From positions 50,716 through 114,715 of the IMG/VR virus record IMGVR_UViG_3300028569_002801: a DNA stretch of 64,000 nt. One strand, given 5' to 3'. Position numbers and translations under genes: made by a program. The DNA comes from a virus. Below, piece after piece: positions 1,140 to 56,048 of the stretch. Numbering within the stretch: position 1 is the first letter of the stretch; each line of letters begins with the position of its first letter. Below the pieces are notes generated by a model that was given only the letters and a program-made list of their open reading frames with translations, had not been told where the DNA came from and did no database searches.

Positions 1140-2336
1140 TTATAAACTAAAGTCAATTCTGTTTACCCAATTACCTTCATTATCGTTTACCCAATACACC
1201 CATTTAACAGGGGTTTCTGTCGTTTTTAGTTTAACGTTTAAATATTCCTGATAACTGTACATGTCTTGTCTATGTAATACATTACCTAACTCATTTTCAA
1301 TTCCTATATATATAAATTTAAAATTTTCAGTATAAGGTATGTAAAGTTTGAACTCATATTCAATTTCCTTTAATTCGTACCAATCTGTATTATCGTTCAC
1401 CGGTGGGTTTGTTCCTTTTATGGTTTCGGGATGTAACTTTTTATTTTTAAAGTTTATTCCCGCATAATTTTCATATTGTGTGTGTGTTCTAACGTCACCT
1501 AACCCATAAACCCCTAAAGCTATATTGTTATCCTCTTCTTGTAACATATGTCTTAATCTACGTTTAGAGTCGTTATCCATTTCCCACCATTGTTTTTCAA
1601 CAATACCATTATTTTTATTTTCTTGATTAAAGTCTGTCCAATGTTTTGTTCTACCTTCTCTTGTGTATTCATGCCAAACCACAGTCTTATGTGGGTGAAA
1701 TAAATCGTAACCTAACGTATATGAACGAATAGATAAACTAATTTCATCACCAGCAAAATAGATATTAGGGTCATACTTATATTCTTCACAATGTTTTCCG
1801 ATTGTAAAAAAGAAATGTCCACTAACAAATCTTGCGGGGATTGGTTTATCTAATGTTTGCCAATTTGGTATTGCGTGTGGTCTAAAAAGGATTGTTCCTC
1901 CCGGTGTGAAGTTAGACGCGACCATCATATATGGTTCAACATTTAATAATTGGTTATCTGATGGTCGGTACATTCCGGCATATGATGTGATGATTGGTTT
2001 TTTTGAACCTGTTATATTCATCATTTCAATCAATTCCACATCCCAATCTTGTAAAAATCTATGATGTGAATCTAATTGTATGGTGTATTCTTCACCGTCC
2101 CATAATTTTTGAATTTCAGAACGAGCCCAACAAAGCCCTTTACTTTCACTCCAATGATAATCTAATATTTTAAATCTTTCATCATTTGTGAATTCTTCCA
2201 TCGATTCAGTTTCATCACGTTGCCAACAAATTCCAAATGTTAAATTTTCAGGGTGTTTTGCTTTATTAATACAATCCCTAATGGTTGGTAATAACTCAGG
2301 ATCTCTATAAGATGCGATTTGTACAAATATTTTCAT
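1140..2336 (-). CDS. GT60 / PF11397 'GlcNAc' family glycosyltransferase (Skp1-Hyp or mucin-type polypeptide alpha-GlcNAc transferase-like)
   Basis: IFVQIASYRDPEL, GLCWARS, DSHHRF (DxH metal motif), FAGDEISLSIRSYTLGYDLFHP and VVWHEYTR match the Gnt1/OGNT family pattern. Confidence 0.85.
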   Translation of the reverse strand: MKIFVQIASYRDPELLPTIRDCINKAKHPENLTFGICWQRDETESMEEFTNDERFKILDYHWSESKGLCWARSEIQKLWDGEEYTIQLDSHHRFLQDWDVELIEMMNITGSKKPIITSYAGMYRPSDNQLLNVEPYMMVASNFTPGGTILFRPHAIPNWQTLDKPIPARFVSGHFFFTIGKHCEEYKYDPNIYFAGDEISLSIRSYTLGYDLFHPHKTVVWHEYTREGRTKHWTDFNQENKNNGIVEKQWWEMDNDSKRRLRHMLQEEDNNIALGVYGLGDVRTHTQYENYAGINFKNKKLHPETIKGTNPPVNDNTDWYELKEIEYEFKLYIPYTENFKFIYIGIENELGNVLHRQDMYSYQEYLNVKLKTTETPVKWVYWVNDNEGNWVNRIDFSL

Positions 2337-3275: not shown

Positions 3276-3845
3276 TTAAGGGCAAGAAGGTAAATCGGTT
3301 ACCACACCGGCAGTAACTTCTGCGATTGCATTATATGTTGGTGAACCACCTATTTTAACTAAAAAGTATCCTGTTAATAATGTTGGTGAACACCCAACAT
3401 TATTAGAATATAAAATAGAACCGATTTGAGGTTCACTTTCATCAAGATACGCCAAAAAAGCCGCATTAACGGCACAAGTACCACCTGTAACACAATTAAA
3501 TGCGGTACAGGCACTTAAAAATGAAGTATAAAAGTATCCCGTAATATTAGTTGAACTACCAAAAGGTGTGTAGTATGGATGTACTGTGCTTGGACCACAA
3601 GTTGGTGTCGGAGTTGGTGTAGGGGTTGGGGGTGGGTCATAACAAGAAACTAATTCAAAGTATTCACATCCTGTTGAATCAATAGTTTTAACCATTAATG
3701 TATTCGCACTTGAATAGAAGGAATTAAGTGTATATGTCCCTCCTGTTGTACTTGTTAAATAACAGTTATTTCCATATTCATCACATAGGTAAACACTCAA
3801 TGGTGGTGTTCCCCCTGTTGTTCCTGATATCGTAATAACACTCAT
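3276..3845 (-). CDS. virion decoration protein: SprB-like N-domain, PT linker, Cys-rich C-domain
   Basis: ISGTTGGTPPLSVYLCD...IDSTGC, then DPPPTPTPTPTPTC. Confidence 0.65.
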   Translation of the reverse strand: MSVITISGTTGGTPPLSVYLCDEYGNNCYLTSTTGGTYTLNSFYSSANTLMVKTIDSTGCEYFELVSCYDPPPTPTPTPTPTCGPSTVHPYYTPFGSSTNITGYFYTSFLSACTAFNCVTGGTCAVNAAFLAYLDESEPQIGSILYSNNVGCSPTLLTGYFLVKIGGSPTYNAIAEVTAGVVTDLPSCP

Positions 3846-6319
3846 TATTGATAAACTAATGTAAACCCCTCTTCTGTTATCATAAAATAACTATCTTCAG
3901 TTAATATTATAAATGATTGACTACAATCGTTACATACTACCTCATATTCTATTTTTAATCTTAAATAAAATTTACAATCACCTAAAGGATCAACATCACC
4001 AACACATTTTGAAATAATTTCAAATGTATTTGTTAATAAATCAATAGTAAAACTTTGTATGTTCGGTATACTACCTAAAATACCTTCGATTGTTGATTGC
4101 CAAAGAGTGTCTTGTGGAATATCATTTAGTGTTGTTGCAGTATAAAATGGTACAGTATATATAGTATCTCCCGATTCACAATCCGTATATACCAAGAAAT
4201 CACCATTTTCTGTTGTAATTGTAAATACGTCCTCAGTTAAAATAAAACACGTATCACCAGATCCTGGACAATCAATTTCTATTTGACAACTAAATACCGC
4301 CCCACTAAAACTACATCCGGTATATCCCGAAATAATATCAATATACCCCTCATTTAACATTTCCGATAAACCTCTTTTAGTTCCAACAGTAGTCGTAAAA
4401 GTACTATTACAAATATTAAATAACTGATAAGATGTTGGAGAGATACCGTTACAATCTATTGTAAAATCTTGTATATCGTAACAACCATTACTATCAGTTA
4501 TTTCAACATAATAGTTTCCAGCGGATAAACCACTTACAGTTGATCCCGTTTGTCCGTTACTCCAATTATACGTAAAAGTTGGTTCTCCTTGATATATTAC
4601 TACGGAAGCCGATCCGTCATTTCCATTAACACAATCTATTTTTTGTATGGAAGTTAAAAGTTGTCCTCCTGTTGTTATTGTAAAACCTGTGGATACCGCA
4701 CAACCAACACTATCAGTGACGGTTATCGTATAATTTCCTGGTAGTAAATTATTATATGTTATTCCTGTCGATGTGGTATCTATTAGGGTGTCTCCGTTAC
4801 TTAATACATAATCTAAAACTCCCGTATATCCTGAAAATACCTCAATAACCGCAACACCGTTTGGTTCCCCACATGTTGACCCGGTAGTTGTTGCACTAAC
4901 AATAAATTTTTGAGTAGATGTTATATTTAATGTTGTTGTATAAACACAACTTGTTCCTGAACCTGAAATTGTTAATTCATATGTATCATTTTGTAAGTTA
5001 GTAAAACTATTAGTTTGATTAAGACTTGTATTTTGATAAACGGTGTTACCACTTAAACCTGATAAAGTGTATGTGTAATATCCTCCAAGCCCTGCAATTT
5101 GCACATCTATTTGTCCATTATTCTGATTGCAGTCTGAGTTGGTAACAATTATGTCTACCACATTAAATCCTCCTACGGGACTTAGAAACCCACTTAATGT
5201 TGTTTCACAAAAATTGGCGTCTCTTACAACAACTTGATAAGTTCCAGCAGCAAGGTTTGTTAATGTGAACACGTTTGATAATGTATACCCAACTTGGGCG
5301 GTAGAAGCCGAATAATAGAAAGGAGCGGTACCTCCAGTTAAAAAATACGTCAGACTACCATCAGATGCGAAACAACTTGGTGTTGATGCACTTAATAACC
5401 CTATACCTAATGGATCAGCAGCACCTACAAATTCACTTTTAGTTACCTCACAACCATTAATATCTGTTACCGTACAAGTATATACTCCTTGTGTTAATCC
5501 CGTAATTAATTGTGTGGTTTCTCCATTACTCCACAAATACGTATAAGGTCCGGTTCCCGTAACTCCTGTTACCGCCAATTTACCTTTATCAATAACACAA
5601 TTAGATGTATTCACCTTCCAAAAACCAAAATCTAAAGAAGTACTTGCAGATATTACCGCGTTTTCAGTGTTAGCCGTGGTACCACCTGAATCAAAAACAG
5701 TAGCATAATAAATACCACTAGGTAATCCGTTAAAATCATATGGTAAAGTTCCTGTTGTTTCTACAACGTAAGGAACACCATCTTGATAAAGAAGAATAGT
5801 ATATGGGGCACCTGAAGATGTTGCACTTATAGTTAAAAATCCGGTATCTTGTCCACAAGTAGTTCCTGATGCGGTAACTACATTTGCCTCAAAACATCCC
5901 GTTACATTAACATTAACATATAATTCATTATTTTGTAAATTAAGAGTATCATTTATTCTGAACACATAAGTACCTCCTGTTAGCCCTGTAAATGTTATAG
6001 GAGAACTACTTGTTTGAGCAGTTAAAGTTCCCGGAATAATATTATCAATTGTGTATGGGGCAACACCACCATATGAAGTGAAAGTCACACTACCTGTTGC
6101 TGCGGAGCAAACCCCCGTAACTTGGAATCCGTAACTAAGTGGTCCTGATGTACATGTTTCTGTACAAGTTACCCCTGTAGCAATATAAACCCCTCTTGCC
6201 GAACCAGAATATGATTCATCTATACATATACTTTCACCAAGTGAAACTCCGAATTGGTATAATCCACAACAGTCTACATATTCATAAACACCATCCGTTA
6301 ATCCTGATACACAAGCCAT
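3845..6319 (-). CDS. SprB-repeat-containing fibre/adhesin-like virion protein
   Basis: Multiple SprB-type repeats (GTGPYTYLWSNGETTQLITGLTQGVYTCTVTDINGC; PTFTYNWSNGQTGSTVSGLSAGNYYVEITDSNGC). No signal peptide or T9SS C-terminal domain visible. Confidence 0.8.
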   Translation of the reverse strand: MACVSGLTDGVYEYVDCCGLYQFGVSLGESICIDESYSGSARGVYIATGVTCTETCTSGPLSYGFQVTGVCSAATGSVTFTSYGGVAPYTIDNIIPGTLTAQTSSSPITFTGLTGGTYVFRINDTLNLQNNELYVNVNVTGCFEANVVTASGTTCGQDTGFLTISATSSGAPYTILLYQDGVPYVVETTGTLPYDFNGLPSGIYYATVFDSGGTTANTENAVISASTSLDFGFWKVNTSNCVIDKGKLAVTGVTGTGPYTYLWSNGETTQLITGLTQGVYTCTVTDINGCEVTKSEFVGAADPLGIGLLSASTPSCFASDGSLTYFLTGGTAPFYYSASTAQVGYTLSNVFTLTNLAAGTYQVVVRDANFCETTLSGFLSPVGGFNVVDIIVTNSDCNQNNGQIDVQIAGLGGYYTYTLSGLSGNTVYQNTSLNQTNSFTNLQNDTYELTISGSGTSCVYTTTLNITSTQKFIVSATTTGSTCGEPNGVAVIEVFSGYTGVLDYVLSNGDTLIDTTSTGITYNNLLPGNYTITVTDSVGCAVSTGFTITTGGQLLTSIQKIDCVNGNDGSASVVIYQGEPTFTYNWSNGQTGSTVSGLSAGNYYVEITDSNGCYDIQDFTIDCNGISPTSYQLFNICNSTFTTTVGTKRGLSEMLNEGYIDIISGYTGCSFSGAVFSCQIEIDCPGSGDTCFILTEDVFTITTENGDFLVYTDCESGDTIYTVPFYTATTLNDIPQDTLWQSTIEGILGSIPNIQSFTIDLLTNTFEIISKCVGDVDPLGDCKFYLRLKIEYEVVCNDCSQSFIILTEDSYFMITEEGFTLVYQ

Positions 6320-35600: not shown

Positions 35601-36624
35601 TTTCTCTATAATCTTGTATGTCGTTTAGTTGTGAAAAATCCCCCTGATTAGCGGCATCTTGTTGTAGTTTAGTTGCGTAATTTTCAACTCTATACTTAAA
35701 CTCATCTATAGATAGTTGTGGAAAATCGTCGGGTATTAATCCCTTTCTTTTATATATTTCATAAACCTCATCTAATTTTTGTCTACCCTTATATGTGTTT
35801 TTTGTTTGTAACGTATTGTTACTGTTATCCCTATATGTGATTTCAGTATTATACATTTTAGGGGCAGTTACCGCATATTGTAAAGGAGTGTCAAATAATA
35901 GTGCAGTAAACTTACCAACAAGTTTTAAACTGATATCATAATTTCCGGTATTTGAATCGAACCTAGCATTAAAGGATAGTAAAGATAAACGATATCTAAT
36001 CGCCTTTCCGTAATAACCCTTTAGTGTTAAATAAAATAATGGGTATGGAAAATTAAAGAATGCAGAATATATAGAACTATCCCCTTGTTCAAAAAGTGTC
36101 CTTCCTTGTATGTCTGTCATTTCAATGTTAACTTCAGGAACCCCCGTCCCTTTAACATTAACCCTAATTGATTTAATACCCAACATTTGGGTATCTTCGT
36201 GTCTTGTAATTGAATTTTTAAATCTTGATTTACCGTCAATGGTTACGACTTGTTCGGTTTTTTGATTTGCCCCCTTACCTAATCTTGATTCAAACCCTGT
36301 TAATTGATCAGACCAACTACTATCAAACGAGGTTTTACCTTTTGGTTTTAAAAAGTTTATTTTTAAATCGTCATCCCCTTGAAATAATGTTGCAACGGTT
36401 GTATTAACAACTGGCGAATCAAATGTCTCACCTATCGCCAATTTTGTTCGTGGGATTATAAATGTTTCTAAGTTAGCGTAATAAACTAAATCTTCATGAT
36501 CCACCAATCTTGGTGCCGCCTGATTATTCTCGTCGTAAATTTGGTTCGGGTTTACTAAGAGTATGTTATCGTACTCCATTTCAACAAATATTTTTTTTGT
36601 TTGTTTTAGTCTTTTATCTGCCAT
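29665..36624 (-). CDS. giant baseplate hub protein (gp27/gpD/VgrG-like termini) with large insertions
   Basis: C-terminal GNVMIQPTMYF...YGPYWIYEVDHNISENGFTTKFKGTR is a gpD/gp27-type hub signature. Follows the LysM gene. Start likely MADKRLK (36624). Confidence 0.65.
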   Translation of the reverse strand: MADKRLKQTKKIFVEMEYDNILLVNPNQIYDENNQAAPRLVDHEDLVYYANLETFIIPRTKLAIGETFDSPVVNTTVATLFQGDDDLKINFLKPKGKTSFDSSWSDQLTGFESRLGKGANQKTEQVVTIDGKSRFKNSITRHEDTQMLGIKSIRVNVKGTGVPEVNIEMTDIQGRTLFEQGDSSIYSAFFNFPYPLFYLTLKGYYGKAIRYRLSLLSFNARFDSNTGNYDISLKLVGKFTALLFDTPLQYAVTAPKMYNTEITYRDNSNNTLQTKNTYKGRQKLDEVYEIYKRKGLIPDDFPQLSIDEFKYRVENYATKLQQDAANQGDFSQLNDIQDYRETLQSLRKSVYTNSIDKFLDKSSFYVSGDQKLIYYPFKKDIEYQTKEDYKTKIEERIKYYLDKLNNNKTFGKGGKREIPLKIKNKNDVLKKLNFEAWINNTNDLQNTYFFRFNKPVDLSTEQGKNDFEKFKLDEDKNKLLKEKVLNEKKEWVDDDTTYFVFGDKTVSDGSYVPNSFLDDIDDAEKTLATNEEIIERNLSQILADRSLKNPAQGGLGFKPTIRNIFAIIFAGADAFYRLMEDTHQAAWDVRNETARLLAVIPPDKSFSVDGLNSIQSSSGTLDKDNVIYPWPLYFIKEKQADGRELYTIQYPGDSKVIKQTKAYDYRIWPEIGFVEAYLKGATETSKPTSANVYNNLADYSSYVSANAIEFPFKTAPYQDLVAIPFFYELFERTYLSSYYTKFINEEISKKQIDKFYGDIESKNISNSIGNNIELNQILKNYKFNYNDFITYLKKISNSGQGESWQTYIRSKYKTEYIDNLLKSTNDIYSIDTLSNRSIKISSDLELSKNLKEYLESTDSSKISFLDTYPFTNLSWVSGNTSNGNTVGGVEQFNDTTKTFIYLDDKKTIARINETEKYTNLSLLSDFRTLNNGAQPYLATTNAPINSQLALKNFYSGREIKDFYITESYVNYGNSYSGNVGTQIQTTSLLNTPYFINALVKGVDENKTNTDNAFTTLGYLFLNSLPLITTKEKIKSIENDVATDLDYLASTLKKYSAVHQVPYAWVLKYGSIWYRYKKYVNENVDILDSVWKNFDYVGSYDPVTSGLTTQYTIPDYSGNSQTMVLQKTENFPIPSVQSKDFIGTGFYPKVINSVYNFVNGKDLFTGYTTNDFQNAYNDNNFRVGKNNQSSNYLNFGFDTLNPDRSLQKTNYYNYAEKSGTTQQYIMLFPSMGGIPIDQSIYECVNSNNILTKELINNNSLYNGSVRSLWSAPHFGYFDNSLLKKPTPTQYLKAIKLNTDSQTPFDLKSAQSEYSSIEEIFSVFTPEMLDKFEEQFIGFCNYKPLSKNLILKEEIIDPSYTNSNKVANIAQKRLYNQILSLFLVNKSGITFVNEDVDGKTLAQKQMATFTSSLKEFLNFDCVLKLGNPGNFDRRLFNSFSNLKEFVPEFEKYTFNPYVKGTLPGDGTNVTLLQSVTQNQDAWNTLRTYLGFSSIYGIDYPGQPNPAFPSTTPSATTTPSATTTPSATTSPTSAITPSTHYTFQSCCSPNEIFNVVIPLNTSDVVTTGSTYVEGEVYYLEAIESFTPNSTNFCARKIANTTTFNPPNQPQTLFLIKTYTLDYDEYPYPNDTNAAVKCLTYKIPSQNCLSQHQQQQNLTPQQQLPANQPQPVVPLFGTPKSTVADFFIDNDIEFTSDNVIKTYPLIRLYAQKKLDNPNLNKQTFTTLINQFLTDQKSIQEKILNQTFLNLNKDLNNITVKDNTTNSVTGDVGKLSLYNTLKGFNDKWIAGSDLKYVTLFEDFLFMDRANSDVGDVYVVDVDKIVKRLDTQNNPDMNLMTVVSNILGDNQFMFFAMPAYINFYGIQTAIKNGQSIDIEIPNSLFGTYLEVDYTKSSPKFLCLYMGNPSEYPKPKENSFIRFDDDSFDLRITDNPLRISDPKRDYSKTNRVVGFSVDFGIQNQNMFKNLDLDMSEMKNTSESFKVFADIGGSVAGDKVAQQSVSMYSIYKSRSYSCGVESMGNVMIQPTMYFVLRHVPLFYGPYWIYEVDHNISENGFTTKFKGTRIPKYSLPNVDNLLINVNQKILQSYKEKNKKTNTPTSGETLINTDPTIKTTKTGTDACKEKTKYTSLPFVDVKRTAITYEELLPIIKAETTNSALRALLLGIALTRPVNSYETDLALLNSINNNLYEISTETKHNGSLDTYLKEQTCVDIMGVSVALASFLDTTTSTKFMVSFYQSMIPLIESLKTLNIDTNEYKQYGKALAQICYTTWNTPVAFGPPPLTAEQIKNEVINNTNTKVISVYNNYVTIFTTLYENFVLNPN
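32047..32100. repeat. perfect 18-nt tandem repeat x3 encoding (TPSATT)n
   Basis: tgtagtcgcacttggcgt three times, in frame within the hub gene. Confidence 0.95.
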
Positions 36625-36931
36625 AATAAAAAATATGTGTATCCAGGGCAGATTTGTAGTCTTGCAGGGCAGCAACTAACGGAAAAGGTACAACTAATAT
36701 TGTTCCATCGGGTATGTTCGTCTCCAATCCTCCATATAATGGGTTTGCCATCATTATTAACCAACCAAAATATGGTGCTCCATATTTTTCGTAACTTATC
36801 TTATCTAACCTACTTTGATTTTTTCTATAAATATATCTTTGATCTGACGATCTTGCAGGTAAACTTAAAAATGGTACTACGGTTTGTTTACCATTAATTA
36901 AAAAATTACCATATCTATCATAATATTGCAT
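36614..36931 (-). CDS. LysM-like baseplate protein (T4 gp53 / P2 gpX-like)
   Basis: SRLDKISYEKYGAPYFGWLIMMANP...IPDGTILVVP. Confidence 0.85.
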   Translation of the reverse strand: MQYYDRYGNFLINGKQTVVPFLSLPARSSDQRYIYRKNQSRLDKISYEKYGAPYFGWLIMMANPLYGGLETNIPDGTILVVPFPLVAALQDYKSALDTHIFYYGR

Positions 36932-36932
36932 A

Positions 36933-39900
36933 TTAATTAAACGTTTTTTTCAAATTAAATTTATTCCACTGTGAGTTTTGATCCGACCACACCTCTTTTA
37001 AATTAGTATCATTAGGTGGATTAATAGGGTTTTGAGTCTCATAGTTTAAAATCCTAGTTTTTTCCTTATTATATGGATTATAGGTGTTGTATTTATTTTT
37101 ATAGAAATTATCATTGAATGACTTAAATCTATTATCAACATTAGTTTTTGATTTATTATAACTATCAACTAATCCCGTATCTTTAGTGTAGAATGTTACA
37201 CCAAAATATGCCTTCCAATTATCTTTCGTTTGAGTATCCTCATTTTTCAATCCATTATCAACAACATCATTACTAAACCCTTCAGCGTCTAAAGCAATAT
37301 CTTTTCCAAATAACATAAAAAATCTATTTTCAGGTGGTGTTGTATATGACGGATCATCTGCAATATATGTATTAAACACAAATGTATCATTAAACGAATC
37401 GGTATCCCCTGATGCGATAATTTTTGTTTCGTATAGTTTGTTATAATATTCATTTAAATCTGAACGTATTTTTAAGAAATCTTGTACAAGTTCTGAATAG
37501 GTGTCAGTCACACCAACACTTGCAGGATCAACACCTGTTCCCCCACTTAAACTATACATAACAACACTACCGTTTTTAGCGATATAACCGTCATTAGCAC
37601 TTGTTACAAAATTTAATTTATCAATTGTACTGATTAATTTTAATTCCTCATTTGCAATTGTCGTATTACAATTTTCTAATAATGCCAAAAGTACGGAACC
37701 CCTATCATCAATTAATTTTTTAATTTGTCTTTTTATTTTTCTTATATCTGAATCTGCAAAATTTTGGTATTGTACTTCAGGTAATAAAGGGCACGTTCCA
37801 TCATCAACATCGTTTTTTGCTTCTTTTACTAGTAATTCAATTTTATTTTGTATTGATTCCGATTTACCGTATATATTTGCAGTGTTTGTTGTGTTACCTG
37901 TTAAATAGTCAAATAACCCATCAGTGAATTTCCTATCTTTTGTCGACATTAAAAGCCCCCCTAATAGATAATTTTCATTAATTTTTTCTAAATTGGTAAT
38001 TGTAGTGTCAGCGTACGATTTTGTTTGATCAGCTAATGTTTTCATAATATCTTGATATGATATTGTCCCGTAAGCCTTTTGAGTATTTAAATCATATGAG
38101 TTTGTTTTTATAGCTCCAATAGTATCTCCAGCATCATTTGTTCTTTGTTTTACAGGATCATCTTTTATACCTAACTGATCTTTTATGTCTGCCAAGATTT
38201 CAGCATCGTATTGTGATGTTGCATCCTCAGTGGAGTCAGCCCTTTCATCATAGATTTCAGTGTTTGCGTAGTAATTAAAAGACAGTGCGTTTTGTAGTTT
38301 AGCTATTGGTGCTGCCAATCCATGTCCACCAATAAAATTAAAACTAACACTAATGTCAGCAATCATTGGCTGTACACCAATACCTTCGGGATTTAAATCA
38401 AATTTTGCATCTTCATATTTAATACTTAATGAGTCGATTGCTATTTTTGTGTGAAAGAAATCCCCAATTCTTAAAACACATATAGGTGGAGCCCCAAATA
38501 CACTGTTTGTTACATCGTTGTAAATTAACTTTGTGTTTTCTCCGTCTTTTGATACTGTAGGTATCGTGTCTCCGGGTCTCATACATTGTTGTAAAAACGT
38601 TAATCTAGCATTTAACCCTTCAGGAGTTATTGAATGGAAAACCGGATGAAAATGTTTAAGTTTACTTTTTAAACCATCATATATCATAGGATCCCTTTGT
38701 TTTACTAATTCAAAATAATTACACTCGGTTAATAATTTTCTTGCAAGTCTTTTGGTTAAGTCTTGTCTTGGTTGGGTTGTTCTTTTTACTATAGGGTCTT
38801 GTTTTTGTCTTGTTGTTGTATAACCTGCAGGATCATTACTTGGGATTCCTGATGTTGTGGTACTACCATTTCCCGGATTTTCTTCAGGTTCAGTAAATAC
38901 TTCCTCATTAGGCGGGTTATCGTTTGTTTGCGTTGATGGTGGTTGCTCAACATCTACCTGTGGTGGTGCCTCATGTTTTACATCAAGTATCCTAACACGT
39001 CTACACGCCATAGCATTTACTGATACCGTACCCTCATTACTATCACTTTTATAATCTCTACTACAATCAATGTATTTGTATTTTGGATCGATGATATTAG
39101 TCGTCTCACCTTCGGGTGTTTGTGTTATTGTTAAATTTTTTCCTATTTCATTTTTTAGTTTTACTCCATCATATTCAAAGTTAGATATAAATTGTAATAC
39201 TGAATCTATTCTTCTTTTTGATAAATCTAAGTTGTATCCAGTGTTAGTTACTGCTGATGCTGATGATTTTAAAGTGAAAGATATTTTACCTCCTTGTTTT
39301 AATGCAATACAAACCTGCGTTAAAAACGCCTTTACTTCTTCAAACTCAGCATCAATATACCCAAAAAATTCATTAATTGAGTCTATTCTTGTCTCAATAT
39401 AGTCTCCTAAATATTTTTCTTGTAATTCTATTGCTCCGTTTATAATTGTATTAACATAATCAACATAAGTTGCATCACCATATTTAATTATTTTTTTTCT
39501 TGCTGCTCCAAAATTTCTTATACCATCACTACCCCCTGTATCATAAAGTGGTTTTAAATTCTTATATGCTATAAGTGTTTGATCGTAAGATTTACCAGCT
39601 TTAGTTGGTTCTGTTGATGATTTCATTCTTGGGAAATCGTTATGGAAAAAAAATAATGGTTCGGTAAACTTTAATACTTCTGGCTCAGGTGGTTCGGTAA
39701 ACACATCTATAGTTGATACTGTAGGTGTTGGCGTTGGGTTAGGTATTGGTGTTGGTGTTGGATTAGGTATTACATCCTCATCAACCAAGTTTTCAACAGT
39801 CTCATTAGGCAACATTTCAGTAACCGTTATTATATCTTCCGGATAGATTATTTCTTCCATTACCTGAAAAACATCATTAGGCGTAAACATTGGGAATTTT

Positions 39901-42900
39901 TTAACTAAATCATATAAATCGTATTTAGTACATCCAGCAAAAAATGAATCTAAAACTTTTGTTATTTCAGATTCAGGTGTTAAATTTTCTAACTCTCTAT
40001 CTAAAATAACATTCATAATAGATGGGTGATCCACAATAATTTTCCAACTTACATTACCTTTTCTTGTTGTATTACTATACGTATATATTGGTTCAGGTCT
40101 TCCTAAGAACGTATTATCCGTCCAATTAGTATTAATTGATTCGTCAAAATTTAAATCGTATGGTGGGAACCACATAATTCTACCTCCATTTGGTCCCTTT
40201 TCACAATCAGGTAAATCTTCATACGTATATCCAGGTCTATTTGATGTTCTCCAAGACAAATTTTCTAATGAGAACATATATTTTTTCACCTTTCCTCCTT
40301 GAATATTTGTCGATTCGGTTCCTTTCCAAGGAGCAATATTTAAATTAAATGTGTTATCCAACACTGAATTTGTAAATTTACGACCCGACGTTGTTATACC
40401 ATCGGTTTTTTGTAACTCATCATGTGAATAGTATGGACGATCTTTAGTGAATACCCTACAATACTCATATCCCTTTGCCGTTGCGGTTCTATCCTCTTTA
40501 GGTAACGATGTTTTTGTTGTGTATCTCACAACTCTTGACCCCTTAGTTAACTCAATATACCCATCATTAAAAACTTTAGACACTTGGTTTATTGCATTAC
40601 CTACGTGTTGGAGTTTGTTTGCTGATCTATTTCCAGCATCTATTAATTTTTGTGTAACATCTAATATTGAATTTTCCGTAAATTCATAATTAGTGGACTT
40701 TGTTGGTTCATATACTGAACTAATGTTTGAAAAATTATATTTACTATTATCTTTAAACGCTTCTCCTCCAGGACCAGCAAAATCTCCAGGTAATATATAA
40801 TTTTTACTCCCTCTACCTGCTTTAGAAATCCAAGTAAATCCTGCTTGTACACCATTTAATCCGTCAAAATATGGACGACTATTTAATCCACTATATATTT
40901 CACTTATTTTTGTCCCCTCATATTCCTCACCAACTTTACCATATGAAAATACCGCACTTCTGTCTGTTGCAATACCTTTAATTTTACTTTCAGGTAATTC
41001 ACCATCGGGTGAAACAATCTCAGTAATTGAAGATTTTCTATTTCCTATATAATATTTTCCTTGTGGTGCTAAAAGGTTATTACCAATTTTATAATCAGGT
41101 CTAAAATTATTTAATCTTAACTGATCATATAATAAATCCCTTGTGGCAACAGATGTGAACTCGACGAATAATTCTGATGCCGATTGGTTTTTAGGTTGTA
41201 ACATTCTAAATACCCCACCAATTGCACCCCCAATTGCCGATAATGGGTTATTGAATATAGCAGAACCTTTCTTATCTGGATAATCAAAATATTCTCCAGG
41301 TATGTAAGAATACGGAGAGTACGTCCCCGCTAATTTTGCCGCAAAGTTTATCGCTTGTCCTAAAAATAAAACAGGGTTAGTGATTGAGTAATTTCTAGAT
41401 ATTATAGGTATTTGTCCTGATAATATACCAAGAGCGTTAAACGGATCTAAGTTTGGTTCTGCAGATATTTGTCCCGTATCAGGGTTAACTTGAGAATTTA
41501 ATAAATTTACCCTACCAAGTGTTTGTTGTAGTAACTCTAACGCTACTCTATGTTTAAATTCTTTTTGTAGTTGTTTTGCTGCAAGATTTGCAAGTGCCGA
41601 ATCTTGTGATAAATTACCATCTGAACCACTTGGATCATTACTTATTAGTATACTTGCAGGACTATATGTAGAAGGTAGAAATATAAACGTATTATCAGAA
41701 TTTGCATATGGTAATCCCGTATTTGGTATTTCTAAATCGTCTATTGTTAATATTGGGTATTTACCGTTACCTGTGACATATTTGTTTATTATATATGCGT
41801 CATTTGCTTCAACATCACCAACATTTTCTAATTCACTATCAATAGTATCAGGAAACCCATACTCACCTTCATTAGTTTTTACTTGGTAATTTTGATTAAT
41901 AATAACAGAATCTTTATCTATAATCTGAGGTCCGTACTGATTTGTTGCAATAAGTATCGGTCTATCAAGTTTACCCTCTTGATATAAATCACTATTTATT
42001 GTGTCTCCGTAGTTATAGTTACCTCTTGGTTGGATTGGTTTTGGTATAAACGCAAACGGTGAAACTTCCGTCTCACTTTGCCCTCCTTCAGGTCTATATA
42101 TGTTTTTAACTATTAAAGTTATTTTAGTCTCCCCCCCAATAGTTTCTAAATCACTACCAAACGTATCCCAAAAATTATAATTACCTTCATTAGAACCTAA
42201 TGTTAAAACATTATTTATATCGTAACGACTATTACCATATTGCGTACTATTCTCAGGTGAATATTTGTTTTTAACTATTAGTACTGTCTCTTGAACATTA
42301 CCTATTTGGTATAGGTAACTGTTAAATGTGTCGTCTATTGTGTATAATCCACTACCTGTCGTTAATATAGATTGGTTATCATTAATATACCAAACGGTAT
42401 TTCCGTAATCTTGTGATGTTGATGGTTTATAAACATTTTTAAGTTTATGAAACACTTCTTGAGTATTCCCTATTTGGTATAGATAACTGTTAAACGTGTC
42501 GTCAATGGTGTATATTCCAGAACCTGTACTTAATATAGTTTGATCATTATTAATTGAGTAAACAGTATTACCATAGTCATCAGGACTTGTCGGTTTATAT
42601 AGGTTTTTTACTTTATGAAAAATTTCTTGATTATTTCCAATTTGGTAAAGGTAACTATTAAGGGTGTCTTGAATGGTATATTCACCATCGCCCATAGTTA
42701 AAATATTTTGATCGTTATTAATGTACCAAACAGTATTACCAAAATCACCTAAACCAAATGGTTTATATACGTTTCTAACTTTGTGTACAACTTCTTGATT
42801 GTCACCTATTGTCTCTAATTTACTACCTATAGTTAGTGGATAACCGTAATTACCTAAATTAGTATTACCAAGTAATGTGGTGTTAATGGTTACGGTGTTA

Positions 42901-43307
42901 CCGTAATTTGTACCTAAACCAATCGGTCCGTATAAATTTTTAACAAACAGTAATGTTTCTTGGTTATCACCTATAGTTTCTAAATTACTCCCCACACTAT
43001 CAGGATATCCGTATTCTCCCTCATTGGATTTGGTTCCTAAATTTAAATTTATTTGTACCACATCACCATAGTAGGTTTTGTTTTCAGGCGTGTATTGGTT
43101 TTTAGTATGAAGAATTTTTTCTTGAACATCACCAACAACTTCAATTTTTGGTGAATCTATGATGGCGTAATCTAAAATTAGAAAATCATTTGTTGCAGGA
43201 ACATCTCCAGTTGAAAACACATTTTCTACTTTATATGGTGGTAAATTTCTTAAAAGTAATTTTTTTCTAAAATTCTCACTTGAATTAAACGATAACGGAC
43301 TTTCCAT
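36933..43307 (-). CDS. giant tail-tube initiator (gp48/gp54/Afp7-like) with N-terminal 56-aa repeats and an inserted OmpA-like domain
   Basis: FPPYDLNFDESINTNWTDNTFLGRPEPIYTY and PPICVLRIGDFF...IDSLSIKY...PMIADISVSF are tube-initiator motifs. SASA...YNLDLSKRRIDSV...GE...RRVRI is OmpA-C-like. Located between tape measure and LysM genes. Confidence 0.7.
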   Translation of the reverse strand: MESPLSFNSSENFRKKLLLRNLPPYKVENVFSTGDVPATNDFLILDYAIIDSPKIEVVGDVQEKILHTKNQYTPENKTYYGDVVQINLNLGTKSNEGEYGYPDSVGSNLETIGDNQETLLFVKNLYGPIGLGTNYGNTVTINTTLLGNTNLGNYGYPLTIGSKLETIGDNQEVVHKVRNVYKPFGLGDFGNTVWYINNDQNILTMGDGEYTIQDTLNSYLYQIGNNQEIFHKVKNLYKPTSPDDYGNTVYSINNDQTILSTGSGIYTIDDTFNSYLYQIGNTQEVFHKLKNVYKPSTSQDYGNTVWYINDNQSILTTGSGLYTIDDTFNSYLYQIGNVQETVLIVKNKYSPENSTQYGNSRYDINNVLTLGSNEGNYNFWDTFGSDLETIGGETKITLIVKNIYRPEGGQSETEVSPFAFIPKPIQPRGNYNYGDTINSDLYQEGKLDRPILIATNQYGPQIIDKDSVIINQNYQVKTNEGEYGFPDTIDSELENVGDVEANDAYIINKYVTGNGKYPILTIDDLEIPNTGLPYANSDNTFIFLPSTYSPASILISNDPSGSDGNLSQDSALANLAAKQLQKEFKHRVALELLQQTLGRVNLLNSQVNPDTGQISAEPNLDPFNALGILSGQIPIISRNYSITNPVLFLGQAINFAAKLAGTYSPYSYIPGEYFDYPDKKGSAIFNNPLSAIGGAIGGVFRMLQPKNQSASELFVEFTSVATRDLLYDQLRLNNFRPDYKIGNNLLAPQGKYYIGNRKSSITEIVSPDGELPESKIKGIATDRSAVFSYGKVGEEYEGTKISEIYSGLNSRPYFDGLNGVQAGFTWISKAGRGSKNYILPGDFAGPGGEAFKDNSKYNFSNISSVYEPTKSTNYEFTENSILDVTQKLIDAGNRSANKLQHVGNAINQVSKVFNDGYIELTKGSRVVRYTTKTSLPKEDRTATAKGYEYCRVFTKDRPYYSHDELQKTDGITTSGRKFTNSVLDNTFNLNIAPWKGTESTNIQGGKVKKYMFSLENLSWRTSNRPGYTYEDLPDCEKGPNGGRIMWFPPYDLNFDESINTNWTDNTFLGRPEPIYTYSNTTRKGNVSWKIIVDHPSIMNVILDRELENLTPESEITKVLDSFFAGCTKYDLYDLVKKFPMFTPNDVFQVMEEIIYPEDIITVTEMLPNETVENLVDEDVIPNPTPTPIPNPTPTPTVSTIDVFTEPPEPEVLKFTEPLFFFHNDFPRMKSSTEPTKAGKSYDQTLIAYKNLKPLYDTGGSDGIRNFGAARKKIIKYGDATYVDYVNTIINGAIELQEKYLGDYIETRIDSINEFFGYIDAEFEEVKAFLTQVCIALKQGGKISFTLKSSASAVTNTGYNLDLSKRRIDSVLQFISNFEYDGVKLKNEIGKNLTITQTPEGETTNIIDPKYKYIDCSRDYKSDSNEGTVSVNAMACRRVRILDVKHEAPPQVDVEQPPSTQTNDNPPNEEVFTEPEENPGNGSTTTSGIPSNDPAGYTTTRQKQDPIVKRTTQPRQDLTKRLARKLLTECNYFELVKQRDPMIYDGLKSKLKHFHPVFHSITPEGLNARLTFLQQCMRPGDTIPTVSKDGENTKLIYNDVTNSVFGAPPICVLRIGDFFHTKIAIDSLSIKYEDAKFDLNPEGIGVQPMIADISVSFNFIGGHGLAAPIAKLQNALSFNYYANTEIYDERADSTEDATSQYDAEILADIKDQLGIKDDPVKQRTNDAGDTIGAIKTNSYDLNTQKAYGTISYQDIMKTLADQTKSYADTTITNLEKINENYLLGGLLMSTKDRKFTDGLFDYLTGNTTNTANIYGKSESIQNKIELLVKEAKNDVDDGTCPLLPEVQYQNFADSDIRKIKRQIKKLIDDRGSVLLALLENCNTTIANEELKLISTIDKLNFVTSANDGYIAKNGSVVMYSLSGGTGVDPASVGVTDTYSELVQDFLKIRSDLNEYYNKLYETKIIASGDTDSFNDTFVFNTYIADDPSYTTPPENRFFMLFGKDIALDAEGFSNDVVDNGLKNEDTQTKDNWKAYFGVTFYTKDTGLVDSYNKSKTNVDNRFKSFNDNFYKNKYNTYNPYNKEKTRILNYETQNPINPPNDTNLKEVWSDQNSQWNKFNLKKTFN
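41790..43103 (-). repeat. about 8 tandem ~56-aa (168-nt) coding repeats
   Basis: Consensus KNxYxP...YGNTVxxINxxxxxxxxxGxYxxxDTxxSxLxxIGxxQE. Copies 3-5 are highly similar at DNA level. Confidence 0.85.
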
Positions 43308-43345: not shown

Positions 43346-45163
43346 TTATGCAATTACACCCTGTTGTTTTTTGTACGATTCTAACTTATATAACACTGTA
43401 TCCATTATTTGTTTTTGTACTTTAGGGTCTTCAAATATTTTTGAAATGTTTCCTCCATCTCCATTTACGCTACCCCCAACATTTATATTTATATCTAATT
43501 TCCCTGATCCACCACCAACTTGATTTAAATAATTTCCTAAATTAGTCCCGACAGCAATTTGATCATCAGGTAATGTTTTATACATTTCACCTCTACCTTT
43601 AATAATTGCTGCACCTGAAGATGGTAAAAAACCATCAGACATAGGCTTACCTTCTTCTATTTCTTTTTTCTTTTTTTCCAGATCCACTCTTCTGTTTTCC
43701 GTTTCCATTGGTGTCTTCGTTCTATCCGCTCCAACAATTTCGTTAATTTTAGATGCCCCTGTTGCTGCCGCTTGGTTAAGACCATCAAGTCCTCGCACAG
43801 TTGTTGGTGCTGCCATATCGGCAGCATCTTTAAATGTGTTACCTAAACCCTCGTTGGTTGTTTTTATATCTTTAAGGAATTTATCTCTATCAGGAATATT
43901 TTTTATAACCGCCTCTTTAATAATATTAACATCTTTTGCTTGATTTTCGGTTATTGTCATTTGAGCGACGGCTAAATCTTTTTCTGATAACGCAGCCTTG
44001 TCTTGATAAACTTTTAATGCTTTTTGTGTGTCCGCATTTTGAAGTTGTGCCGCTTCTATTTTTTTAAATCCCGGTATATCTATTGAGACTTTTCCGTCTT
44101 TACCTATCTCAGCCAATCCCGCAACTAATGATTGTGTATCTTCAGACATTGATCCTAAATCAAATTTATCTTTTAGATAATCCATTTTTGATGCTTCTTT
44201 TCCTGCTTCAAGTAATTCATCAAAATTTTGACCCGTTATTCTAGCTTGTTCTCTTAATCTATATAAATCTTCTGTTGACGCTTCAAACCCACCCGTCGCT
44301 TTATTAAATGTAAATGCCGCCTTTGTTGAGTTTATAAGTTCTTTTTGTAATCCAGCCATGTCACTTTGTGCCATGTGCATTAGTTGAAATGGGTCAGCTA
44401 ACTTTCCAACCGCACCACCTAACATTTGCATACTTGCTGCCGCCTCAATAGCCTTTTCTGGATCCAATAGATTACTAGCGAATCCTTTAGCCCCTATTTT
44501 ATCTACGGTAGTTCTTAACAACATGGCTTGTTTAACCATATTTTTCATACCATCAATACCCGTTTTAAATCCAAAACCACTAACCGCCTTTACGTTTGTT
44601 CCGATTTCTTTAAGATAGGATTTAGCACTTAACCCCGCCTGTCTTGCTTCTACCGATAAATCATGTATTTTTTTTGTTGCTTCCTCCTGTGTACCACCAA
44701 ACCTTGTCATATCGGTTATTAACATAGCGATTTCTTTTGTGGACTCTCCCGTTGCTTTAGACAACTCCACAATATTTTGTAAAACTTGGGTACTTGGATT
44801 TACTATTCTTCCCATACCTTCCGATAATCCCTCAACAGCAGTTGTAACATCTTTAAAAGATGAACCAATATCCATAGTAGCGGTATACGCTAAATACATT
44901 TTTTCTCTGAACTTATCAGTACCCATAGCAACACCACCCATTGATCTCTGTAACGATAACGCCTGATCGTTCATAGAAATAAGTTCTTTATTTGCGTTTT
45001 CTAAAATGGTTTTCCAACTTGTACTTACAACAAAGTTAGTTAAAGCCTTTTTTAAGTCTTCTATTTGTTCAATAGTTCCTTGGGTATTCGCGTATTGACT
45101 AGTACCGCCGTCTCCGGCGGTACTTGCAACATTAGAATCAGAAGATACGGAATATAGAAACAT
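43346..45163 (-). CDS. tape measure protein
   Basis: Helical Ala/Gly/Lys/Met-rich 605 aa, positioned after the tube and chaperone genes and before the tube initiator. Confidence 0.7.
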   Translation of the reverse strand: MFLYSVSSDSNVASTAGDGGTSQYANTQGTIEQIEDLKKALTNFVVSTSWKTILENANKELISMNDQALSLQRSMGGVAMGTDKFREKMYLAYTATMDIGSSFKDVTTAVEGLSEGMGRIVNPSTQVLQNIVELSKATGESTKEIAMLITDMTRFGGTQEEATKKIHDLSVEARQAGLSAKSYLKEIGTNVKAVSGFGFKTGIDGMKNMVKQAMLLRTTVDKIGAKGFASNLLDPEKAIEAAASMQMLGGAVGKLADPFQLMHMAQSDMAGLQKELINSTKAAFTFNKATGGFEASTEDLYRLREQARITGQNFDELLEAGKEASKMDYLKDKFDLGSMSEDTQSLVAGLAEIGKDGKVSIDIPGFKKIEAAQLQNADTQKALKVYQDKAALSEKDLAVAQMTITENQAKDVNIIKEAVIKNIPDRDKFLKDIKTTNEGLGNTFKDAADMAAPTTVRGLDGLNQAAATGASKINEIVGADRTKTPMETENRRVDLEKKKKEIEEGKPMSDGFLPSSGAAIIKGRGEMYKTLPDDQIAVGTNLGNYLNQVGGGSGKLDININVGGSVNGDGGNISKIFEDPKVQKQIMDTVLYKLESYKKQQGVIA

Positions 45164-47865: not shown

Positions 47866-50800
47866 TTATACGTCATCAAAAGATGCTCCAGTCGGTGTGA
47901 TAACAAACTCGATGTCTATATATTCTAACGCTCTTGTTGGTTTCAAGTAGATTTTACCTGTTAAAGTATTTGAATCTAAATCTTCAGGTGTGTTTGAAAC
48001 CGCCACACGGAAATCAATTAAACCTCTATCTCTTCTGATACTATCCAATATTGGGTTAACAGAATCTAAAAAGTCTTGTCGTACTTTTTGATCGTTTTGT
48101 TCAAACAATAACCTAATTGCTACAGCTGAAATCAATTTACGTGCTTGTAATAACAATCTTCTAACGTTGATTCTATCAAGTGCAGATTCTTTAATTTGCA
48201 TTGTTTTGTTACCCCAAATTACCGTACCTACATCGGAGAAAGTAGCGATTGGGTTAATTCTACCTTTATAAAGTGTATCTCTATCGTCTTGTGTTAATTT
48301 ACGTCTCGCTCTAATTGCGTTAACTAAACCTCTTGTGTACCCCGCAGATGCGAACCAAGGGAACGCAATGTTATCGGTTAATGCTAAATTCTTAACCACT
48401 TCAGAAGTTGGTGGAATATAGATTTGTGTATTGTTAACTGCATCTCTTGTTAAAATCCAAGGGTAGTATGATGCTGTATAGTTAGAATCAATACCTGTTG
48501 CTTCTAAGTTATCAACTACTTGTTGTGGATAAATAAGTCCCTCTTCAATATCGTTGTATGATGGTAAGTATAAATTAAAATCAGGGGTAGTACAAATATA
48601 AATTGAATCCGCTCTATCCGTTTCAATCATATCAATAGCCTCCTCAACTAAATTTGAGTTGTTCACATAGTCAATTCCTGGTGTAGTAAATATGTTAATA
48701 TTTGTCGCTTCAGGATTTGCAAATGTGTTTTGTCCCCATTTATATGCGTAATAGTCAGTATTAGCCCAATTTTCTTGGTTAGGTCCTGATATTGCTTTGA
48801 ATGCTCCCCACCCTGTTGCGGTTGGGTATGTAATACTTGGTTCAGCACCATATTTAAAACCTGATTGTCCTAATGCATATGTGTCTTCATTTGTTCTATA
48901 TTCTCTATATATGTCCCATCCGTCAAAACCTCCGTAAGCCATTAAAGTAAACTTACGAGTGTTTAATCTATAATAAGGACTAGAAGTATCTGTTGGTTCA
49001 GAATTAAATGATCCGACGCCAACCTCAAACGCTGATTGTCCTGATGTTGCGTAACCATTAGCAATCGTTACTACAGTTGCCCCACTATCCATGTGGAATC
49101 CTTTAGTAATATATCCCCATTCCATACCTGTAGTGTCGGTACCTAAATTAGGAGGTAATTGTTTACCCTTATATTCAAAGAAATCATAATCAATTCCTGA
49201 TATGTTTGATATGCCTAAATATGCCTTTCTTGGGTTTTCACCACTTGATATTACGGGATTGTCTCCACCATTAGAAGAACCAAAAGGAGGGTTATAAACA
49301 ACATCACCAGGTTTGAAATATTTAGTCTTATAAACTAAGTATGGAGGAGTTGCGTTGGCGTACTCTCTACTGATATACCCCTCAAATCCACAAGGAAGAG
49401 CATCTATTGGTGATTCCTCACTCATTTCTAACATTATATATTTAGAATTAACTTTGTATTCTCCGTTTGATGTCCCTATTTTATTAGCCACGTAATTGTT
49501 ATTAGACGGATCCAAAGAACAATTAGTGAAACTTTCAATAACTCTTGGGTTTTGATCAGTATCATAAAAATCTCTTATGAATACATCAAAGGTACTTGAG
49601 TTAAAGGATATGTTACCTATCGACATCTTTACAAGTCTGTTTGCTGCGTTTCCATCGGAAATTAAAACAAATTTAAATAACTTGTAAACTTTATTACCTC
49701 TAAGTTCTGAAACCAAAAACGGAGTTGCTGGTGTTTGATATTGTTCTAAATAGAATCCTATTGAATCGTTATTTAACGATCTTGCTCCTGGTAAATCTAT
49801 CAAATCACAATATAATCCTCTAATCTTTCCTGATCTATAACCTGTAGTTAAAAGACTTGTATATGTTTCTTCAACAAATAAAGGAACCTGAGTTCTATCT
49901 TTACCAAAGTTATTTCTTCCAAATACTTTAGAAATGAAGTTTTTATCTGAGGACAACATTGACGTTTGGAATTCAAACACATCACCGTCGGACGATACTC
50001 CTGAAATTGAGAATGGTAAATAAGGGTTTTTAGTCACCGCAGAATACGAACCTGTACAAATCATTTGTACGTCGGTAACTCCTGTTACTTCATAAGATGG
50101 TCCTGACTGAGTTGAGTTATAATTAGAAATACCTCTTGATCTTAATGTCGCAACGACTAAATCATCGTAATCTAAGAATGGTGTACCTGAATAATTAGTA
50201 TTATAGAAAACACAAGAACCTGAGAAGTTACCACTTGAACCTGTTAAAGTACTTAGTGCAGCCCCAAAACCTTGTCCATAATATGAACTAATATCAGTAA
50301 TTGGGTTTTGTGAATAATTAAATAATGCATAGTACCAAGCATCATTAGTTGTTGCCGATAAATTAGCTAAAGATAAATTTACATTATTTACACCAAAAGA
50401 CTCTGTGTATGCTGTAATTGTACCAGTACCATTTAATGTTGTACCTGTAACTAAATTGAATGTACCTCCACTTACGGTACCCCAAAATAGTGCGGTAGAT
50501 CCTGTGGATGGTGAAGCATTTGCAAATGCATTAACTTGACTTGATATGAATACTCTTAAATCAGAATCAATAGTAGATGTCCCCCCATTAAATTCTGTAT
50601 ATGTATTGTAAAAATTATTATTAACATTGATTGTACTTGGTACAGTCATGTTGTAAGTAATATTAGCACTTGTACCCGTAGTTCCTGTAAATGTTAAAAT
50701 AGTTGAAGAAACTCCCGTTGCCGCAACTGTGGAAGGGTTAACGTTACCTATTGTTGTGATTGACCAAGATGGTCCTGCGTCGTATCCTGATAATCCTAAT

Positions 50801-54962: not shown

Positions 54963-56048
54963 ATGGATGTTGAAATTAAATATGACGGGTGTAACCCAAC
55001 TAAAGAAGAAAAAATACTAATTAATCGTTTTATTAATAATCTTAAGAAATCTCATCCTCTTAACGATGACGTAACCATTATTTTTCAAACGGAAAGATCA
55101 GAAAAAATGACAACGGGAGTTAGAACCAATAAACATAAATTAAAAATATTAGTTAAGGATAGACTTAATAGAGATATTTTAAGGACGGTTGCCCATGAGT
55201 GGGTTCACGAATATCAAAGGAACGTTTTAAAAAGAAAAAAACAAAAAGACGTTGGGAGTGAGAATGAGAACGAAGCCAATGCAAAATCCGGAGAAGAGGT
55301 AAAAAAGTTTGAAAAAACAAATAAAAAATTAGAAAAAACTATATATTCTAGATTTAGTGAGGAAATTTCTAAAATAGAAAACATTTTAAATGAAGAGATA
55401 CCAAGTAATCGTAAAATCATTTCAGAAATAAAAAAAATAAGTATAGAACAATTACCCTATGATTACGATTCTTTAGGTTCATTTATAGATGATGAAACTA
55501 TGAAAACCCACTATACTAAACACTATAAGGGGTATGTTGAGAAATTAAATCTTGAGTTAGAGAAAGTATCGGGTAAAGATATGGACATAGAAGAGATAAT
55601 AAAAAAAATATCAAGATTTAATAAAAAAGTTAAAAACAATGGGGGTGGTGCATTCAACCACGCATTATTTTGGAAAATGATGACACCTAAAAAAACAACA
55701 CTTAAAAATCCATTATTGTTTAAAATTGAAAAAACTTTTGAATCTGTAGAATTGTTTAAAGAAAAGTTTGAGGAAATTGCAAAAACCAGATTTGGTTCAG
55801 GTTGGGTGTGGTTAATATTAACTAAAAATAATACATTAAAAATCGTAACTACCCCAAATCAAGATAACCCATTAATGGACACTGAAAAAAATGGGGGTTA
55901 TCCGTTACTTGGTTTAGATATATGGGAGCACTCATATTATTTAAAATATAAAAACGAAAGAGATAAGTATATTCATAACTTTTGGAAAGTGGTGAATTGG
56001 GATTTTGTTTGTGATGTGTATGTATCCCAAACAAAAAAGAAGATATAA
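54963..56048 (+). CDS. sod: Fe/Mn superoxide dismutase fused to an N-terminal HEXXH zincin-like domain
   Basis: C-terminus: HYTKH, NGGGAFNHALFW, FGSGWVWL, TPNQDNP, DIWEHSYY. N-terminus: LRTVAHEWVHEYQ...ENEANA. Confidence 0.88.
   Translation: MDVEIKYDGCNPTKEEKILINRFINNLKKSHPLNDDVTIIFQTERSEKMTTGVRTNKHKLKILVKDRLNRDILRTVAHEWVHEYQRNVLKRKKQKDVGSENENEANAKSGEEVKKFEKTNKKLEKTIYSRFSEEISKIENILNEEIPSNRKIISEIKKISIEQLPYDYDSLGSFIDDETMKTHYTKHYKGYVEKLNLELEKVSGKDMDIEEIIKKISRFNKKVKNNGGGAFNHALFWKMMTPKKTTLKNPLLFKIEKTFESVELFKEKFEEIAKTRFGSGWVWLILTKNNTLKIVTTPNQDNPLMDTEKNGGYPLLGLDIWEHSYYLKYKNERDKYIHNFWKVVNWDFVCDVYVSQTKKKI

Follow-up and report, generated by a model that had tools for sequence, protein, structure and literature searches.

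A predicted OmpA-like domain inserted into the tube fold of a putative tail-tube initiator from an uncultured T4-like phage: a candidate anchor for the tube tip

It is poorly understood how a contracted tail tube stays in the periplasm while the DNA crosses the inner membrane, and one very large open reading frame (ORF) in a 64,000-nucleotide stretch of viral DNA (positions 50,716 to 114,715 of IMG/VR record IMGVR_UViG_3300028569_002801; the window hereafter) raises the question of whether the tube tip could hold on to the cell wall. The ORF, P0001 (36933-43307, on the minus strand, as are all features of this protein and its two neighbours given below), encodes 2124 amino acids (aa) made up of an N-terminal region, a split tube-initiator domain with an OmpA-like insert, and a C-terminal module. 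The reading tentatively preferred here, at somewhat less than an even chance, is that P0001 serves a large uncultured T4-like myophage as its tail-tube initiator, a counterpart of gp48, Pvc7 and Afp7, and that its OmpA-like domain anchors the tube tip. No paper reporting an OmpA-like domain on the tube initiator of a phage came up in full-text literature searches; such a domain on a tether makes the initiator a concrete and testable candidate anchor.

The first-pass annotation of this locus had placed two halves of a gp48/Afp7-like domain about 500 aa apart, and each motif that it quoted was found at the claimed position in the ORF. The N half of the putative tail-tube fold (39987-40289; aa ~1007-1107) has many invariant columns and a long beta-hairpin, and carries WFPPYD at aa 1046 (40155-40172) and FLGRPEPIYTY at aa 1067-1077 (40077-40109). 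The C half (38277-38576; aa ~1578-1677; AlphaFold2 strands 582-657) carries PPICVLRIGD at aa 1607 (38460-38489) and PMIADISVSF at aa 1647-1656 (38340-38369), leaving ~530 aa between the two sets of motifs (aa 1046-1077 and aa 1607-1656). The OmpA-like motifs fall between them and together span aa 1217-1442: PLFFFHND at aa 1217 (39636-39659), SSASAV at aa 1348, YNLDLSKRRIDSV at about aa 1358-1370, and RRVRILD at aa 1436 (38982-39002). Scans of the whole 2124-aa protein against Pfam, PHROGs and NCBIfam gave nothing useful, and phmmer of both the whole protein and the insert against PDB sequences gave no significant match.

The OmpA-like domain (38967-39668; aa 1214-1447) was predicted by AlphaFold2, using an alignment of 71 family sequences (A1), with a predicted local distance difference test score (pLDDT) of 80-95, and is bordered on either side by disordered stretches of pLDDT 31-39. 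Its best VIA-align match is the OmpA-C domain of A. baumannii (3td3_A; Z 9.9, root-mean-square deviation (rmsd) 2.4 Å, 120/120 residues), with similar values for Pal, OprF, PorE, TagL and MotB; the top 50 rows of a Foldseek search against the PDB were all OmpA-like domains of the OmpA/Pal/MotB/TagL/YfiB kind, with probability up to 1.00. The order of secondary-structure elements, beta1-alpha1-beta2-alpha2-beta3-alpha3-beta4, is canonical, with ~85 extra, confidently predicted residues between beta1 and alpha1 (aa ~1221-1307). The insert sequence alone scores below the cut-off for the Pfam OmpA family (PF00691; E 0.12, 13.1 bits, cut-off 27.2); PF00691 matches 30 of the 71 aligned relatives at E<=0.01 (best E 4.9e-8), and the A1 profile recovers 32 PDB sequences at E<=1, solely OmpA, Pal, YfiB, OprF, PorE and MotY-type chains (best E 1.4e-5). 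Several homologues have been named 'OmpA-like peptidoglycan-associated protein' by the Joint Genome Institute, and all the others 'hypothetical'. AlphaFold2, Foldseek, VIA-align and the family profile together bear out the proposed domain between the halves and confirm, as far as a predicted model can, that the insert adopts an OmpA-C-like fold.

In the model of the protein's own segment (P0002), matches other than those to OmpA-like domains all span residues 2-659, that is, both flanks; Pvc7 aligns at Z 8.1 over 139 residues, and further both-flank matches include Streptomyces contractile injection system (CIS), P1, phiCD508, A-1(L) 'baseplate-initiators', pyocin R2 and diffocin, followed by tail tubes and Hcp. 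The predicted strands of the N half (residues 10-14, 42-45, 48-63 and 72-90 of that model) give a short strand, a long hairpin (48-63 and 72-90) and the next helix, and the C half gives five more strands and a helix. An insert-free view that needs no sequence editing is offered by natural relatives whose halves are joined by 62-118 residues (P0076, P0114, P0080, P0102 and ORFs in L082-L085). The AlphaFold2 model of the 978-aa insert-less protein of L084 has a mean pLDDT of only 52.8 overall, yet 72-87 in both tube halves. Its top Foldseek rows are A-1(L) baseplate initiators (probability 0.98; range for baseplate initiators 0.93-0.98), the next being Streptomyces CIS, AlgoCIS and Anabaena CIS baseplate proteins and Afp7; a VIA-wide search returned tail-tube-type proteins in each of its top 50 rows (Z up to 8.8). 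A second-look alignment of this model placed Pvc7 (6j0n_b) and Afp7 (6rao_G) first, at Z 9.3 each, and aligned T4 gp48 (chain 5iv5_BE) at Z 8.2 with an rmsd of 3.9 Å over 134 residues. The residue numbers of this chain reach 353, which identifies it as gp48 (364 aa), gp54 having only 320 aa; the chain's 165 modelled residues span 56-353, the fold likewise being spread over a longer chain. Initiators (Z 9.3-8.2) rank ahead of tubes or Hcp (8.0-6), by margins that are small on this scale, where values ~1 Z unit apart count as tied. With Pvc7/Afp7 and T4 gp48 as best structural matches, the models confirm the proposal that the flanks together form one tail-tube-type domain, which is probably initiator-like, of the gp48/Afp7 kind. 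A gp27-like hub with two tube-like domains is less likely, because one tube domain needs both flanks, with ~140 aligned residues spanning them.

Tube proteins face the lumen with their long strands and carry the helix on the outer side. The insertion point is found directly after the helix that succeeds the long hairpin; the insert should therefore project outward from the tube, on which the protein would sit as a hexameric ring, the first of the tube. The chain continues from the N half into a helical segment (39816-39986; aa ~1108-1164; AlphaFold2 helices 93-162, pLDDT 42-57) with a conserved DSFFAGCxKYD, and enters the C half through another (38577-38765; aa ~1515-1577; AlphaFold2 helices 513-572), in which FHPxFHSITPEGLNxRLTFLQQC has invariant columns. 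Both segments are kept even in insert-less relatives, and the variable unit is linker, OmpA-like domain and linker (aa ~1165-1514).

The Pro/Thr/Glu-rich linkers noted in the first-pass annotation were likewise recovered, as two tethers that are predicted to be disordered and are rich in Thr, Pro, Glu and Gln. The N-side linker is Pro/Thr/Glu-rich (39669-39815; aa ~1165-1213; pLDDT 32-39) and measures 29-130 aa across the family (median 42, with 71% polar or Pro residues); the C-side linker is Pro/Thr/Gln/Glu-rich (38766-38966; aa ~1448-1514; pLDDT 31-36) and measures 40-93 aa (median 48). E. coli OmpA also uses a Pro-rich hinge. Some members of A1 (e.g. L007 and L011) have an extra ~60-aa Cys-containing segment in the N-side linker (CVVLKYQIGVTTDLTYTGCSGDV), possibly a further small domain. 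A 398-aa protein encoded at 1140-2336 (minus strand) strongly matches the N-acetylglucosamine (GlcNAc) glycosyltransferase family PF11397 (E 3.5e-66); its gene sits among the structural genes, close to numerous Thr/Pro-rich linkers, the two on either side of the OmpA-like domain being among them.

Peptidoglycan is the presumed ligand of the OmpA-like domain, and the residues that contact diaminopimelic acid (DAP) in bacterial relatives allow the putative pocket to be compared. These are D486, N494, L497 and R501 in TagL, where mutating Asn494, Leu497 or Arg501 abolishes wall binding (PMC8253398), and D271 and R286 in AbOmpA, the Asp pairing with the Arg to hold DAP (PMC12108004, PMC8253398). 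The counterpart of GHTD...N..L...R is the motif SSAS-x7-N-x2-L-x3-R (39210-39266; aa 1348-1366), which presents equivalents at the same spacing: S1351, N1359, L1362 and R1366. The family GSAS aligns ungapped under GHTD in a hidden Markov model (HMM) alignment to a solved OmpA-like chain, 9v99_A. Conservation in A1 reaches 69/71 for N1359, 70/71 for L1362 and 71/71 for R1366, with G1400, C1435 and R1436 also invariant in all 71 members. Judged by the alignment, three of the four contacts are under strong constraint and the acidic partner is systematically missing. The beta1-alpha1 loop, which is enlarged here, is one of three loops forming the binding crevice (PMC8253398). With three contacts kept, but the Asp missing and the loop enlarged, ligand binding is plausible and canonical DAP recognition is not assured.

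The protein belongs to a large family. Exhaustive HMMER searches with aa 1003-1702 yielded 1692 representatives at E<=1e-3, 1229 of these at E<=1e-30, all of them large (900-2800 aa), and a word-indexed search gave 4711 homologue clusters at 90% identity; in IMG/VR, at least 593 stretches encode a member, on contigs up to 256 kilobases (kb). By blastn and tblastn, the region has no match among 50,697 isolated-phage records, and the conserved C half likewise found none at E<=1; BFVD holds one uncharacterised UniProt member, A0A6J5L6C4. The metagenome-assembled and single-amplified genome (MAG/SAG) labels that occur with the family are Flavobacteriaceae (a 248-kb contig), Chryseobacterium, Paludibacteraceae, Gammaproteobacteria, Prochlorococcus and Methanobacterium, which are binning labels and do not establish hosts. 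Of 262 sampled homologues, 260 have both flanks (each at E 1e-30 to 1e-85). By family HMM, the OmpA-like core lies between the halves in 238 of the 262 (~91%); 19 further members have a long gap, most showing degenerate versions of the motifs by eye, and only four have a short linker. A FastTree phylogeny of 255 members and P0001 requires three changes to account for the short-linker forms, whose closest neighbours have the domain. From the tree and the occurrence, the OmpA-like module therefore appears to be ancestral, strongly retained and dispensable for the tube domain.

The gene neighbourhood resembles that of T4 gp48. The order of genes for a 291-aa protein, the tube protein, a gp51-like protein, a 605-aa protein, the 2124-aa protein, a 105-aa protein and a 2336-aa protein is kept in 130-137 of 160 related loci; the tail module also includes the sheath gene and reads sheath, tube, gp51-like (PF12322), 605-aa, 2124-aa and gp53/gpX-like. 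T4 has the order 51-27-28-29-48-54, and the order here parallels 51-29-48, the gene following a gp51-like gene and one of gp29 size, as that of gp48 does; no counterparts of T4 genes 27 and 28 are recognised between the gp51-like and 605-aa genes. The upstream neighbour (43346-45163; present in 131/160 loci) encodes the 605-aa protein, which is helical and Gly/Ala-rich and matches no Pfam, PHROG or NCBIfam model; its gp29 size and T4 gene 29 position make it a candidate tape measure. The downstream neighbour (36614-36931; present in 137/160 loci) encodes the gp53/gpX-like 105-aa protein, which matches phrog_7145 'baseplate wedge subunit' (E 4.5e-5) and, weakly, Phage_gp53 and Phage_tail_X. Its LysM-like consensus is Y.Y..G.SRLDKIS..YY.PYFGWLIL.ANP...IP.G..L.IP, and it is probably a baseplate 'glue' protein. 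That the OmpA-like domain replaces the LysM glue is less likely, because this LysM-like gene of gp53/gpX type lies directly downstream and the usual glue is apparently supplied.

Domains of a peptidoglycan-binding fold class are already known to be joined to the tube fold of the first ring in Pvc7 (6j0n, 9qgl), Afp7 (6rao), AlgoCIS Alg7, Mu gp43, Milano gp25, the A-1(L) initiator and the pyocin R2 glue/ripcord. In these LysM-bearing systems the domain is at the C-terminus or in a helix-rich domain, rigidly packed as glue; the LysM domains of tube initiators have a documented structural role, and the LysM(-like) domain of the initiator or of a neighbouring glue protein packs against the sheath initiator and wedge proteins (PMC12546770; PMC11915804). 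Here, by contrast, an OmpA/Pal/MotB-type domain is placed inside the tube fold on long disordered tethers, the protein is ~10 times larger, and a separate LysM-like protein is encoded downstream. What is new is thus an OmpA-like fold, inserted and tethered, where LysM, appended and packed, was already known in tube initiators. T4 gp48 (364 aa) lacks an OmpA-like domain and has no detectable sequence similarity to P0001. Bacterial domains of the OmpA/Pal/MotB type that anchor machines include AbOmpA (3td3), Pal, TagL of the type VI secretion system (5m38), PorE of the type IX secretion system (6top) and MotB/PomB; the domain here has the same fold (Z up to 9.9) and the same N..LS..R and (N/C)RRV motifs, and the concept of a trans-envelope machine tied to the wall would be shared. 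It differs from them in having Ser or Asn in place of the GHTD Asp and a beta1-alpha1 loop ~85 aa longer; moreover, bacterial anchors act inside their own periplasm, whereas this domain is on a part of the virion that enters from outside.

A mechanism can be proposed in which the tube-fold domain is interrupted, on what would be its outer face and just after the canonical helix, by a loop-out consisting of an OmpA/Pal/MotB-type domain between disordered Pro/Thr-rich tethers of about 50 and 70 residues. Upon sheath contraction, the initiator ring would move along with the tube, at whose tip it would enter the periplasm; the tethered OmpA-like domains could then bind the peptidoglycan layer non-covalently, holding the tip while the hub and tape-measure proteins are released and the DNA is delivered. 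A recent preprint with in situ work on P2 reports that the tube and tube-initiator complex apparently serve as the attachment point after contraction (10.64898/2026.09.14.750843). Peptidoglycan binding and anchoring of the tube tip are, on this analysis, plausible, and the likelihood that we would give them stops short of one half. It is possible, if rather doubtful, that throughout a large uncultured jumbo T4-like clade, whose hosts are probably Bacteroidota and other Gram-negatives, six tethered OmpA-type domains on the first tube ring clamp the tip to the host sacculus, with a pocket that is perhaps host-tuned.

Several observations count against an anchoring tube initiator. The position of the GHTD Asp (aa 1351) is occupied in A1 by Ser in 58/71 members, by Asn in 10/71 and by Asp in 0/71, and the beta1-alpha1 crevice loop exceeds its usual length by ~85 aa. 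At least three losses of the module show that it is dispensable, and a subunit in which ~1000 aa precede and ~430 aa follow the tube domain (~1400 extra) would have to leave the baseplate with the tube. As for the tube fold itself, Z values of 8-9 are 'middling', fold matches being common there, and the pLDDT of the flanks is 50-87; the family profile A2 showed no link to T4 gp48 (hhalign, prob 0.13) or gp54 (prob 0.39), and no Pfam tube-cap match was obtained in P0001 or its relatives. A search of the flank profile against the single T4 gp48, gp54 and gp27 sequences found nothing and is uninformative, as the gp51 positive control also failed. What gives the fold match weight is that the match list is uniform, that both halves are covered and that the gene order agrees.

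The main rival is that the OmpA-like domain is a structural module which links the tube initiator to the wedge or sheath-initiator in the extended state and never meets peptidoglycan, as the precedent of Pvc7, Afp7, Mu gp43 and pyocin R2 with their LysM(-like) domains, and the structural role documented for such domains (PMC12546770; PMC11915804), would suggest. The family-wide absence of the canonical Asp, the remodelled pocket loop and the very large protein, which suggests deep integration in the baseplate, all fit this explanation; however, two disordered linkers of variable length (40-70 aa) are ill-suited to a rigid connector, the losses (at least three) left the tube domain and gene order intact, the adjoining gene already encodes a small LysM-like protein, and the pocket Asn, Leu and Arg are nearly invariant, so that a purely structural role is judged somewhat unlikely. 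A natural intermediate is that the domain does bind, with its ligand being a modified or amidated stem peptide, another envelope polymer, or a host periplasmic or outer-membrane protein instead of canonical meso-DAP peptidoglycan. The change of Asp to Ser or Asn across the family while the Arg is kept would agree with an altered ligand, as would the confidently predicted ~85-aa elaboration in one of the three crevice loops, whose diversity may reflect peptidoglycan diversity or partner binding (PMC8253398); yet three of the four DAP contacts are unchanged, and this is an unlikely solution. That the insert is a decayed passenger, a captured host domain now serving as bulk or spacer without specific function, might be read from the losses and from a sequence that falls below the Pfam threshold (E 0.12), but retention in ~91% of a very large and diverse family, the invariant motif residues (R1366, G1400, C1435 and R1436 in 71/71) and a fold predicted with high confidence render it highly improbable. 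Anchoring is preferred to these because of the long disordered tethers, the harmless loss, the LysM-like neighbour and the invariant pocket residues that have no obvious structural need.

Thousands of phage lineages from the environment, all uncultured, have this architecture, and a large family of 'hypothetical' proteins that includes UniProt A0A6J5L6C4 gains an annotation. The tube-initiator fold apparently tolerates a large loop-out, and the link between peptidoglycan-binding-type folds and tube initiators is widened from LysM to OmpA-like domains. If the anchoring mechanism is true, the domain would be a phage-borne counterpart of the TagL/PorE/MotB anchors, and the remodelled pocket, with its Asp-to-Ser change and enlarged loop, may be tuned to host wall chemistry.

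Outside the split domain, the N-terminal ~1000 aa (40290-43307) consist of a conserved region of ~540 aa and, in this phage, an added tandem array of ~56-aa repeat units. In the AlphaFold2 model of the full insert-less relative, the N-terminal ~540 aa have no confident fold (pLDDT mostly <60), and a search of the ESM Atlas with aa ~540-1010 gave no usable match. The C-terminal module of about 425-430 aa (36936-38210; alignment A3) found no match among PDB sequences when its profile was used. In insert-less relatives, these C-terminal ~430 aa are a separate ORF of ~367 aa (L084:5015-6118, L083:7715-8818; E ~1e-20); P0001 is therefore a fusion of at least two modules.

The source virus record is 114.7 kb long, estimated to be 38% complete, and has ~32% G+C. 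The window contains replication genes of T4 type (gp32-like, DnaB-like, UvsX/RecA-like, PolB and ribonucleotide reductase (RNR)) and a contractile-tail module with a 1073-aa sheath, a tube protein, a gp51-like hub protein (PF12322, phrog_150) and a Baseplate_J protein. The closest relatives of the sheath, at ~30% identity each, are from an uncultured 484-kb phage, Microcystis phage Mel-JY01 and Flavobacterium phage immuto. An 824-aa protein (3845-6319, minus strand) has SprB repeats (PF13573, E 1e-17), which are typical of Bacteroidota gliding adhesins and hint at the host phylum. The low G+C, these repeats, the MAG labels and the Flavobacterium phage among the sheath relatives are hints that favour a Gram-negative host in the Bacteroidota, none of the indications being decisive. 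The window also encodes a 361-aa protein (54963-56048, plus strand) in which a complete Fe/Mn superoxide dismutase (PF00081 and PF02777, E 2e-38) lies behind an N-terminal extension of ~150 aa.

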